Source: an uncultured Cytophagales bacterium (GTDB lineage: Bacteria; Bacteroidota; Bacteroidia; Cytophagales; Bernardetiaceae). Taken from it: a stretch of 64,000 bases of DNA. Positions within the stretch are counted from its first letter, which is position 1. Each line of letters starts with the position of its first letter. The DNA lies in contig CAVXHP010000006.1 in the NCBI GenBank assembly GCA_963761725.1, forward strand, positions 573,534 through 637,533. The letters are read 5' to 3'. The notes under the pieces are model-generated. The model saw only the letters and a program-made list of their open reading frames with translations. It did no database searches and was not told where the DNA came from. Shown piece by piece: positions 13,422 through 13,913 of the stretch. The translations under genes were made by a program, and so were the position numbers.

Positions 13422-13455
13422 GTTAGTGATTAGTGATTAGTGATTAGTGATTAGT
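13422..13455 (+). repeat. (GTGATTA)n heptamer tandem array, ~4.7 copies, starting directly after the stop codon of the upstream CDS
   Basis: gttagtgattagtgattagtgattagtgattagt. Confidence 0.9.
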
Positions 13456-13522
13456 TACGATTTTTAAGGGTAATAAAACTAATTACAATTCGTTAATTAA
13501 TCTTATTTGATAATTTTAATAT

Positions 13523-13828
13523 TTGTGCATTAACTGTATTTATTCTACGATTATGACTTTTTTTCAACGCATTAATAATTTTTACTTTTGGTTTTTCTTA
13601 GCATTTATTGTTTGGATGTTTTTTTTAGATGGAAATGATGTATTAAATCAAATCCGTATGCGACAAACACTAGAAGAATTACAAGCCGAAAAAGAATATT
13701 ACAGCAAACAAATTAACCTTTTAGAAACAAAAAAGGCCCAAATAAATGATGCTAAAAGCCTAGAAGAAATTGCAAGAGAAAAATACCTGATGACAAAAGA
13801 AGGCGAAGATGTTTATGTGGTAGAATGA
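13523..13828 (+). CDS. FtsB/DivIC-like septum formation initiator (single TM plus coiled coil). The true start is probably the internal Met (MTFFQRINN...).
   Basis: Hydrophobic helix 'FYFWFFLAFIVWMFFL' is followed by a leucine-zipper-like coiled coil and 'EEIAREKYLMTKEGEDVYVV', typical of FtsB C-termini. Confidence 0.55.
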   Translation: MCINCIYSTIMTFFQRINNFYFWFFLAFIVWMFFLDGNDVLNQIRMRQTLEELQAEKEYYSKQINLLETKKAQINDAKSLEEIAREKYLMTKEGEDVYVVE

Positions 13829-13830
13829 AA

Positions 13831-13913
13831 GTGATTAGTAATTAGTGATTAGTGATTAGTGATTAGTGATTAGTGATTAGTGATTAGTGATTAGTGATTA
13901 GTGATTAGTGATA
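13831..13913 (+). repeat. (GTGATTA)n heptamer tandem array, ~12 copies (one GTAATTA variant)
   Basis: Perfect 7-bp periodicity that begins 2 nt after the stop of the FtsB-like CDS. Confidence 0.95.

Follow-up and report, generated by a model that had tools for sequence, protein, structure and literature searches.

Tandem repeats of seven-nucleotide units (heptamers) have been noted in bacteria since 1990. In that year, Mazel et al. reportedly described the cyanobacterial units CCCCAGT, TTGGTCA, and CAACAGT of the short tandemly repeated repetitive (STRR) sequences. In the strict sense, STRR sequences are defined in heterocyst-forming cyanobacteria. We describe here arrays of heptamers, mainly GTGATTA and GTGATAA, at gene boundaries in a 64-kb stretch of DNA from an uncultured Cytophagales bacterium (GenBank assembly GCA_963761725.1, contig CAVXHP010000006.1, positions 573,534 to 637,533). 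This whole stretch is called the window. Its GC content is approximately 32%.

Intergenic heptamers were described by Rehm et al. (2015, PMC4692102) in Xanthomonas (GGGAATC) and Nostoc (GGGGAYT). The nearer open reading frame (ORF) lies on the 5' side of these repeats, whatever its direction. The coding strand carries the repeats after a stop codon, which some of them overlap, and the non-coding strand carries them before a start codon. They form 70 to 75 convergent inverted pairs, and few lie between divergent genes. Their length and sequence differ between close species. Xanthomonas transcripts start or stop at the repeats more often than at controls. No function was found, and the authors favored G-quadruplexes (PMC4692102). 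In Nostoc, deletion of heptamer repeats altered reporter output (bioRxiv 10.1101/2022.06.06.494920).

TAACTGA repeats are found in Beggiatoaceae, Cyanobacteria, and five Bacteroidetes, including Flexibacter litoralis DSM 6794 (MacGregor 2015, PMC4679880). In F. litoralis, a start codon lies 1 to 43 nt past the end of 12 of 14 TAACTGA sets. A set of seven in reverse orientation directly abuts a stop codon, after the gene for RNase HII. TAA ATTACGAA is found after stops in the same genome, and the unit ATTACGA follows stop codons. The emphasis of that study was on the sites upstream of starts and on a translational regulator (PMC4679880).

The arrays in the window are of the same kind as the STRR, TAACTGA, and GGGAATC/GGGGAYT repeats. 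They are a new unit type within the described heptamer class and not a new stop-codon device. They are probably slippage-driven intergenic microsatellites that lie between a stop codon and a terminator hairpin. The window has the features given by Rehm et al.: an excess of period 7, a non-coding location, an ORF abutting the 5' side of the G-rich strand, convergent pairs, and variation between strains.

Period-7 arrays were called with Tandem Repeats Finder (TRF) and with an exact period-7 scan of the window. Their junctions were read against the ORF map and Pfam matches. The exact scan retrieved 13 non-low-complexity period-7 runs of at least 2 units, about 8 of which are arrays discussed here, versus 1 run for period 8. 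The arrays contain 2.6 to 11.9 head-to-tail copies, as do heptameric simple sequence repeats (SSRs) of the kind of Rehm et al. and the Mrazek-type long SSRs. The pattern STGATWASTGATWA (STGATWAx2) has 17 matches in the window, and dinucleotide shuffles give an expectation of 0.02. Five genes carry GTGATTA/GTGATAA arrays of 4 to 12 copies, all in sense orientation and placed from -12 to +1 nt relative to the stop codon (Table 1).

The first-pass annotation of this DNA had reported such arrays at five or more gene 3' ends, and this holds. In addition to the five genes in sense, a TCAGTTA array at 2681 is flush with a TAA. Its list of sites was right for 13422, 13831, 18773, 27661, 45626, and 2681, which are at 3' ends. 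The sites at 1606 and 12311 are instead upstream of starts. We could also confirm that the repeat itself encodes the TAG of 18327-18776 and the last three codons plus TGA of scpB. The arrays that it did not list are GTGAATT at the gene 18891..20093(-), TAGTTTT at 27587, and AATTACG/ATTACGG at 52455, 53983, 59039, and 60605.

The arrays are confined to spacers as tandem 7-nt units. The G-rich strand has its 5' end against the ORF, and it is the coding strand after a stop or the non-coding strand before a start. All of the G/C-skewed window arrays with ORFs on both sides obey this rule (10/10). The array at 60605, for which no flanking minus-strand ORF was found, is the only one in the window that breaks it. 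By Pfam matches, the genes beside the window arrays have no common function. A known RNA family was rejected as the identity of the arrays, since Rfam gave 0 matches at gathering thresholds across the whole window.

The same placement was found in other genomes. A scan for GTGATWAx3 with one genome per species gave at least 120 contigs and 126 arrays. Each array was oriented to read GTGATWA, and boundary contact was taken as within 12 nt of an ORF end. The counts in this and the next two paragraphs are among the matches listed. By record title (manual count), 62 of 120 contigs were Bacteroidota. The other phyla were Acidobacteriota, Cyanobacteria, Planctomycetota, Verrucomicrobiota, Gemmatimonadota, Chloroflexota, Bacillota, and Proteobacteria. 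At stop codons, 36 arrays were sense and 5 antisense (binomial p = 8e-7). Before starts, 8 arrays were on the non-coding strand and 6 on the coding strand. The median distance to an ORF was 8 nt on the left versus 86 to 96 nt on the right. Convergent spacers serve as an internal control, because both of their sides are stop codons. Of the 16 arrays in these spacers, 10 abut the stop of the same-sense gene and none abuts that of the other gene. The stop phase was one of the array's two own-stop phases in 25 of 36 cases, versus approximately 10 expected. In many cases the first TGA or TAG of the array itself serves as the gene stop, and degenerate units often run into the ORF end.

The placement rule is not specific to GTGATTA. 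Array-bearing loci of 912 kb plus the window contained 271 arrays of period 7, of which only 21 were inside ORFs. Periods 6 and 8 gave 20 and 8 arrays. Other heptamers were mainly the near variants GTGGTTA, GTGGTCA, and GTGATGA. Read along the nearer gene's coding strand, heptamers that had not been selected for were G>C in 10 of 10 convergent-spacer cases. The stop-free heptamer AGTGGTC obeys the same rule. In viral contigs, GTGATTAx3 was found in 30 loci, versus 10 and 16 for two same-composition control heptamers, and the controls were likewise sense at stops. GTGATTA is therefore modestly favored, at 2 to 3 times the controls, and was rejected as a uniquely favored heptamer. The placement rule is general.

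A complementary (TWATCAC)n array follows many arrays, and the spacer in between has a median length of 32 nt. Relative to the GTGATWA strand, 37 partners were 3' and 1 was 5', and a stricter threshold gave a ratio of 28:0. Inverted partners thus occur in a single polarity. Array pairs more than 150 nt apart were not enriched, and long-range pairs flanking cargo genes were rejected on this ground. Folding of the paired arrays gives stem-loops with energies between -36 and -53 kcal/mol, and a U run and a Shine-Dalgarno sequence come after some of them. Such a stem-loop can occupy the entire spacer from the upstream stop to the downstream start. For (GUGAUUA)6, the folding energy is -10.3 kcal/mol. 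The scpB array of the window makes up the 5' arm, and the 27587 array its partner, in a hairpin of the scpB transcript (fold z = -4.9). A universal G-first rule was rejected. Families with weak G/C skew also pair in the opposite G-C order (28 vs 15), so the G/C skew is not a universal descriptor of polarity. Polarity may belong to each family.

The window was compared with a relative that is approximately 97% identical in the flanking genes. This relative was represented by metagenome contigs recovered by exact-protein look-ups, and these look-ups of window proteins matched metagenome sample ERZ25039505 and one Logan run. The 18772 array has 3 copies in the relative and 4 in the window, a 7-nt indel. 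The GTGAATT array at 18878 has 3.5 copies in the relative and about 1.5 to 1.9 in the window, a 21-nt indel. The array 3' of the DUF3137 gene (13423) is absent in the relative. The spacer there is wholly replaced from the second base of the stop codon, which is TGA in the window and TAA in the relative. The FtsB-like stop in the relative reads TAA TAAAGTAAGAGGTAAGAAGTTAGAAGTTAGAAT, with the heptamer unit TTAGAAG and not GTGATTA. The degenerate array of the serine hydroxymethyltransferase (SHMT) gene is identical in both, and the 1605 array is conserved. The short-read Logan contig terminates within the 18772 array.

In these contigs, whole units are gained or lost between close strains, and arrays appear, vanish, or switch unit at a given gene end. 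The suggestion of a slippage hotspot in the first-pass annotation agrees with the two indels and with the short-read contig break inside an array. Judged from these alignments, the arrays are hypermutable.

At scpB, a 91% ortholog ends in ...NND-TAG, versus ...NSDK-TGA in the window, and both hairpin arms are kept. Drift at the 5' edge of an array can, on this comparison, reset the last residues and the stop codon. A heptamer array follows the stop in 1 of 71 scpB orthologs at 40 to 58% identity. The array at the scpB end is thus taken to be a property of the lineage and not of the gene, and a gene-specific conserved element at scpB was rejected. One scpB ortholog (L187, 56% identity) has a CAGTTNN array past its stop and then a (TTACTGA)n array of the opposite sense. 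This layout is a TAACTGA-family version of the inverted-pair arrangement.

The relative differs from the window in one further way beside the FtsB-like gene. Its contig L124 contains an extra 208-aa gene without a Pfam match at 7046-7672, which corresponds to 13829-14008 of the window. The gene is inserted between the FtsB-like gene and a Y_Y_Y/GAF/SpoIIE gene. The insert is flanked by inverted TTAGAAG / CTTCTAA heptamer arrays and has long hairpins inside. The window retains a remnant of it, TCAGATTTTAGGAC, on the minus strand. Repeats of other periods slip too, though rarely. A period-10 array, CTACTTCAAT x2.2, at 7088-7109 of the window differs by a 9-nt indel from the relative.

Separate hairpins are found 30 to 80 nt past the arrays. 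Outside the AATTACG sites, they lie beyond 4 of 5 GTGATTA-type arrays and beyond the ATTACGG array of hemD, and one was also located beyond the 2681 array. The arrays themselves do not have the form of an intrinsic terminator, which is a GC-rich stem-loop and then a U run, and none of them matched in a terminator scan of 12000-20000 (0 arrays). Given the hairpins beyond them, the arrays that have one would probably be transcribed as the first part of the 3' untranslated region (UTR). The arms of the 27562-27584 hairpin bear the AATTACG motif that is tandemly arrayed elsewhere in the window.

Table 1. Heptamer arrays, partner arrays, and hairpins in the window, and loci in other genomes where arrays adjoin palindromes.
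Location	Strand	Feature	Details
1605..1639	+	GTGATAA array	2 perfect + degenerate copies, on non-coding strand; 8 nt upstream of start of 1018..1596(-); nearest stop 52 nt away; not at a 3' end
2681..2702	-	TCAGTTA-type array (reverse of TAACTGA/CTGATAA)	3.1 copies; flush with TAA of enoyl-CoA hydratase gene 2703..3605(-); unit in gene sense is TCAGTTA
12310..12327	+	CTGATAA (= TAACTGA) array	2.6 copies; ends 5 nt before ATG at 12333
13423..13455	+	GTGATTA array	4.7 copies, 100% matches (TRF); begins 1 nt past TGA of DUF3137 gene 12333..13421
13477-13497		Degenerate inverted partner of 13423 array	
13830..13912	+	GTGATTA array	11.9 copies, 97% matches (TRF); begins 1 nt past TGA of DivIC/FtsB-like gene 13553..13828
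13931-13966		Weak hairpin after 13830 array	Only hairpin following this array
18772..18800	+	GTGATTA array	4.1 copies, 100% matches; includes TAG stop of 18327..18776
18831..18866		Terminator-like hairpin between two convergent arrays	15-pair stem, then T run; fold z = -3.5 on minus strand
18878..18890	-	GTGAATT array (AATTCAC on plus strand)	About 1.5-1.9 copies; flush with TAA of 18891..20093(-)
27562-27584		Terminator-like hairpin	Perfect 9-bp stem AATTACGAG-CGCAT-CTCGTAATT, then T-rich run
27587..27611	+	TAGTTTT/TAGTGAT array	Inverted partner of scpB array; 51 nt upstream of start of 26348..27535(-)
27663..27689	-	GTGATAA-type array	3.9 copies, 85% matches (TRF); reads AGT GAT AAG TGA, the last three codons + stop of scpB (27678..28403)
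45523-45566		Terminator-like hairpin after SHMT array	
45627..45658	-	Degenerate GTGATWA array	Begins 1 nt past TAA of SHMT gene 45660..46949
52455..52478	+	ATTACGG array	3.4 copies; begins 12 nt past TAA of hemD (51642..52442)
52508-52558		Long hairpin after hemD ATTACGG array	
53983..54014	-	AATTACG-type array	4.4 copies; begins 5 nt past stop of 54020..54430(-)
59039..59067	+	AATTACG array	4.1 copies; 123 nt past stop of 56180..58915
60605..60634	-	AATTACG-type array (TTCGTAA on plus strand)	85 nt past stop of 59311..60519
L031, L117 (Paludibacter bin); L066, L106 (Prevotellaceae bin)		Arrays adjoining a conserved hairpin	Same hairpin at different loci
L033, L058, L063, L081, L107, L113, L116 (Pyrinomonadaceae)		Arrays with inner stem	GAAAAGC..GCTTTTC

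In the mechanism that we favor, the arrays would arise and resize by replication slippage. The apparent fusion to stop codons would be a by-product of an ORF-flush array with both TGA and TAG in its GTGATTA unit. With a period that 3 does not divide, such an array closes any ORF that reaches it within 1 to 2 units. In the window, the only effect of an array on an ORF is that the ORF ends at the first in-frame stop. It had been suggested that a change of copy number could alter protein C termini. This is not supported here. The ORF closes in the first 1 to 2 units, and the 149-aa product of 18327..18776, whose stop is inside an array, is identical in both strains. A dedicated stop-codon function is not needed for the pattern.

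The first-pass annotation had offered such a function, a multi-frame translational safety net. It would be selected to halt read-through or frameshifted ribosomes directly past the gene. The unit does carry TGA and TAG, with TAA on its other strand, and arrays are sense at stops. All three frames are closed within 19 nt past the stop in 3 of 5 array genes, versus a median of 70 nt without an array. The remaining two close their frames at 39 nt (SHMT) and 85 nt (scpB). Two units would suffice for this purpose, however, and arrays reach 12 copies. In this AT-rich genome, the median distance to the next in-frame stop is already 19.5 nt for genes without arrays. The same arrays occur upstream of starts on the other strand. 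The stop-free units GGGAATC, GGGGAYT, and AGTGGTC obey the same placement rule, and since the units of Rehm et al. contain no stop codon, the rule cannot depend on stop codons. Arrays are also lost or swapped between close strains, and scpB orthologs elsewhere are without them (1/71). We regard the safety net as an extremely improbable cause of the arrays. The all-frame stop codons of GTGATTA are argued to be incidental.

A second alternative is that the arrays are functional cis-elements in RNA or DNA, alone or paired as stem-loops. They would bind an oligomeric protein, or act in mRNA 3'-end stability, termination, or translational coupling. The strictness of their orientation and their direct contact with ORF boundaries in different phyla are consistent with this. 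So are the hairpins of -36 to -53 kcal/mol that span stop-to-start spacers, some with a U run and Shine-Dalgarno sequence, and the retention of the scpB hairpin in the 91% ortholog. GTGATTA also gives UAG every 7 nt, the spacing that HutP reads. Among the described repeats, the transcript starts or stops at heptamers in Xanthomonas (above controls; PMC4692102) and the altered reporter output after heptamer deletion in Nostoc (bioRxiv 10.1101/2022.06.06.494920) point the same way. On the other side, turnover is high at approximately 97% identity, and the array is not conserved across scpB orthologs (1/71). The neighboring genes are without a common function, and the units GTGATAA, GTGAATT, and GGGAATC contain no UAG. 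Two specific forms of this explanation were rejected. The first was selection for a hairpin in the sense-strand RNA. The sense strand was the more stable in 7 spacers and the antisense strand in 13 (Wilcoxon p = 0.06, in the wrong direction). In these folding models there was no sign of G-U compensation or of RNA-level selection on the transcribed strand. The second was an unstructured RNA landing pad. The array units scored 0.34 versus 0.31 for composition-matched shuffles and are no less structured. We consider a cis-element unlikely.

A third alternative is that the arrays are arms of a palindromic element. It would resemble a repetitive extragenic palindromic (REP) sequence, a bacterial interspersed mosaic element (BIME), or a miniature inverted-repeat transposable element (MITE), be mobilized by an enzyme, and insert at ORF boundaries. 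One-sided inverted pairs (37:1 among the matches listed) are as expected for element ends. The other heptamer families, of which few cases were inspected, each had a single pair polarity. The Pyrinomonadaceae copies share the inner palindrome GAAAAGC..GCTTTTC, and arrays in the Paludibacter and Prevotellaceae bins lie beside the same conserved hairpin at different loci (Table 1). Whole spacers are swapped between close strains with a break exactly at the stop codon, and the phylogenetic spread is patchy and includes viral contigs. Against this, no shared core was found beside the arrays in the window. No target-site duplications were found, and no transposase was linked to the arrays, although no examination was aimed at transposases. 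Copy number changes in whole units, as it typically does in slippage. No cargo-sized pairs occur, all partners being at short range, and GTGATTA is 2 to 3 times commoner than same-composition controls in viral contigs and no more. A mobile element of this type is very unlikely as the explanation.

Palindromes beside GTGATTA/GTGATAA arrays in other phyla include GTAGAGACGC..GCGTCTCTAC, ATGCCTGCGGCGGACAGGCTG, and GAAAAGC..GCTTTTC. Read from sequence, the arrays that adjoin such palindromes suggest REP/BIME-like mosaics around heptamer arrays.

Several points weigh against slippage-driven microsatellites as the whole account. Slippage alone does not account for why arrays keep one orientation, sit flush against ORFs, and pair on one side, which leaves some selective or mechanistic polarity to be accounted for. 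In some taxa the arrays adjoin conserved dispersed palindromes, which is element-like rather than like a plain microsatellite. Different heptamers at the same FtsB-like stop in two strains hint at a site-specific drive. The sample of GTGATWAx3 contigs is possibly biased, and several loci share one genome. The ORF caller was crude, with ORFs of at least 90 aa and the first start codon taken, so starts are approximate.

It is also conceivable, though quite unlikely, that the heptamer-array hairpin is a class of structured element across phyla and viruses. Its polarity and flush ORF contact would come from a strand-polar DNA process or from a general constraint, by Rho or the ribosome, on the sequence that can adjoin an ORF. 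A strand-polar process could be a dedicated enzyme or the templated growth of palindromes. Since the rule holds for units that can and cannot form G-quadruplexes, one cause would cover the STRR, TAACTGA, GGGAATC, and GTGATTA arrays.

The window contained other repeats and differences between strains. An element of approximately 48 nt, ACTGTAACTGATTAGCGAG + TGATTTATA x2.4 + AAAAGG, is present three times (878-925, 2477-2524, and 3625-3672). Each copy is just upstream of a minus-strand gene (203..862, the methyltransferase gene 1692..2474, and the enoyl-CoA hydratase gene 2703..3605). From its position, it may be a shared promoter or operator with a period-9 repeat. A MITE-like insertion of approximately 155 nt was found at 46986-47139. 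It has terminal inverted repeats TGTAACATAAATTT / AAATTTGTGTTACA, a long hairpin inside, and a duplication of 8 bp, TTCAATAT. The relative (L121) does not have this insertion. At this place (L121 2245-2898; window 46950-47243), the 4HBT and SHMT genes of the relative are separated by a Uma2-family (PF05685) gene, which the window does not have. A link of the arrays to this gain or loss of the Uma2 gene was rejected, since the junctions concerned are free of arrays. On the downstream side of SHMT, the relative encodes an intact 210-aa gene. The window copy at approximately 45150-45479 (-) is interrupted by an in-frame stop (...CATAATTGA...) and looks like a pseudogene. Position 15986 of the window, where the ORFs 14009..16054 and 15963..18041 meet, has a 1-nt indel relative to the close strain. 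The relative encodes a single 1023-aa Y_Y_Y/GAF/SpoIIE gene and a separate 258-aa gene there. The window copy may be frameshifted, or the indel may be a sequencing error.

The arrays have practical consequences. They set the annotated stop of some genes, they break short-read assemblies, and they are strain markers that change fast. Being simple and abundant, they would also offer a convenient system for tracing the mechanism behind the polarity rule, if that rule has one mechanistic cause.

A search for 14-mers of the GTGATTA array found no papers in the library covered. Several known sites and repeats resemble the arrays in part. A Fur box is a 19-bp inverted 7-1-7 site or a NATWAT hexamer array at a promoter. 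The window arrays are direct period-7 repeats after stops or beside starts, and the first-pass annotation had rightly set the Fur box aside. Where the protein is present, HutP reads UAG every 7 nt, as UAG-N4-UAG-N4-UAG in a 5' leader next to a terminator. Only GTGATTA has this spacing. GTGATAA and GTGAATT contain no UAG, and the arrays lie in a probable 3' UTR and not in a leader. The arrays share with contingency-locus SSRs a slippage-prone tandem structure and strain-variable copy number. Unlike those loci, they are outside reading frames and promoter spacers, whole-unit changes leave the protein as it is, and the neighbors are housekeeping genes (scpB, glyA, hemD, and an ftsB-like gene). 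REP/BIME sequences and intrinsic terminators also follow stops, are rare between divergent genes, and form long stem-loops, some with U runs. Unlike REP/BIME sequences, the array stems consist of tandem 7-nt units that change as whole units, and the window has no conserved REP core and, with no examination aimed at transposases, no linked RAYT transposase. Unlike both REP sequences and terminators, most window arrays are without a good partner and have separate terminator-like hairpins beyond them.

The heptamer repeats are closer. With STRR sequences the arrays share non-coding heptanucleotide tandem repeats that vary between related strains, and GGGGACT is STRR1 on the other strand. The window arrays are not STRR in the strict sense. 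Their units differ, and the gene content and 32% GC are not cyanobacterial-looking. The CTGATAA arrays at 12310 and 2681 are rotations of TAACTGA with the same placement as in F. litoralis. A forward array (12310) stops 2 to 5 nt short of an ATG, and a reversed one, TCAGTTA (2681), is flush with a stop. The AATTACG arrays match the post-stop ATTACGA of F. litoralis. By these matches the window would come from a Flexibacter/Bernardetia-like organism, and its host has the look of a Bacteroidota member. GTGATAA equals TAAGTGA and is one base off TAACTGA. The main unit, GTGATTA, is two bases off and was not described by MacGregor (2015), and its sites in the window are mostly after stops. With the SSRs of Rehm et al. 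(2015), the arrays share tandem 7-nt units, intergenic location, the polarity rule, convergent pairs, and variability between relatives. The window unit is AT-rich and carries stop codons, whereas those units carry none. The G-quadruplex subclass has runs of at least 3 G per unit in at least 4 units. GTGATTA, GTGATAA, GTGAATT, and AATTACG have no G runs. As GTGATTA cannot form a G-quadruplex, the shared placement rules cannot depend on one. An AT-rich unit of this kind thus obeys the rules of the G-rich units for orientation, flush ORF contact, and convergent pairing, which argues against quadruplex formation as their cause.

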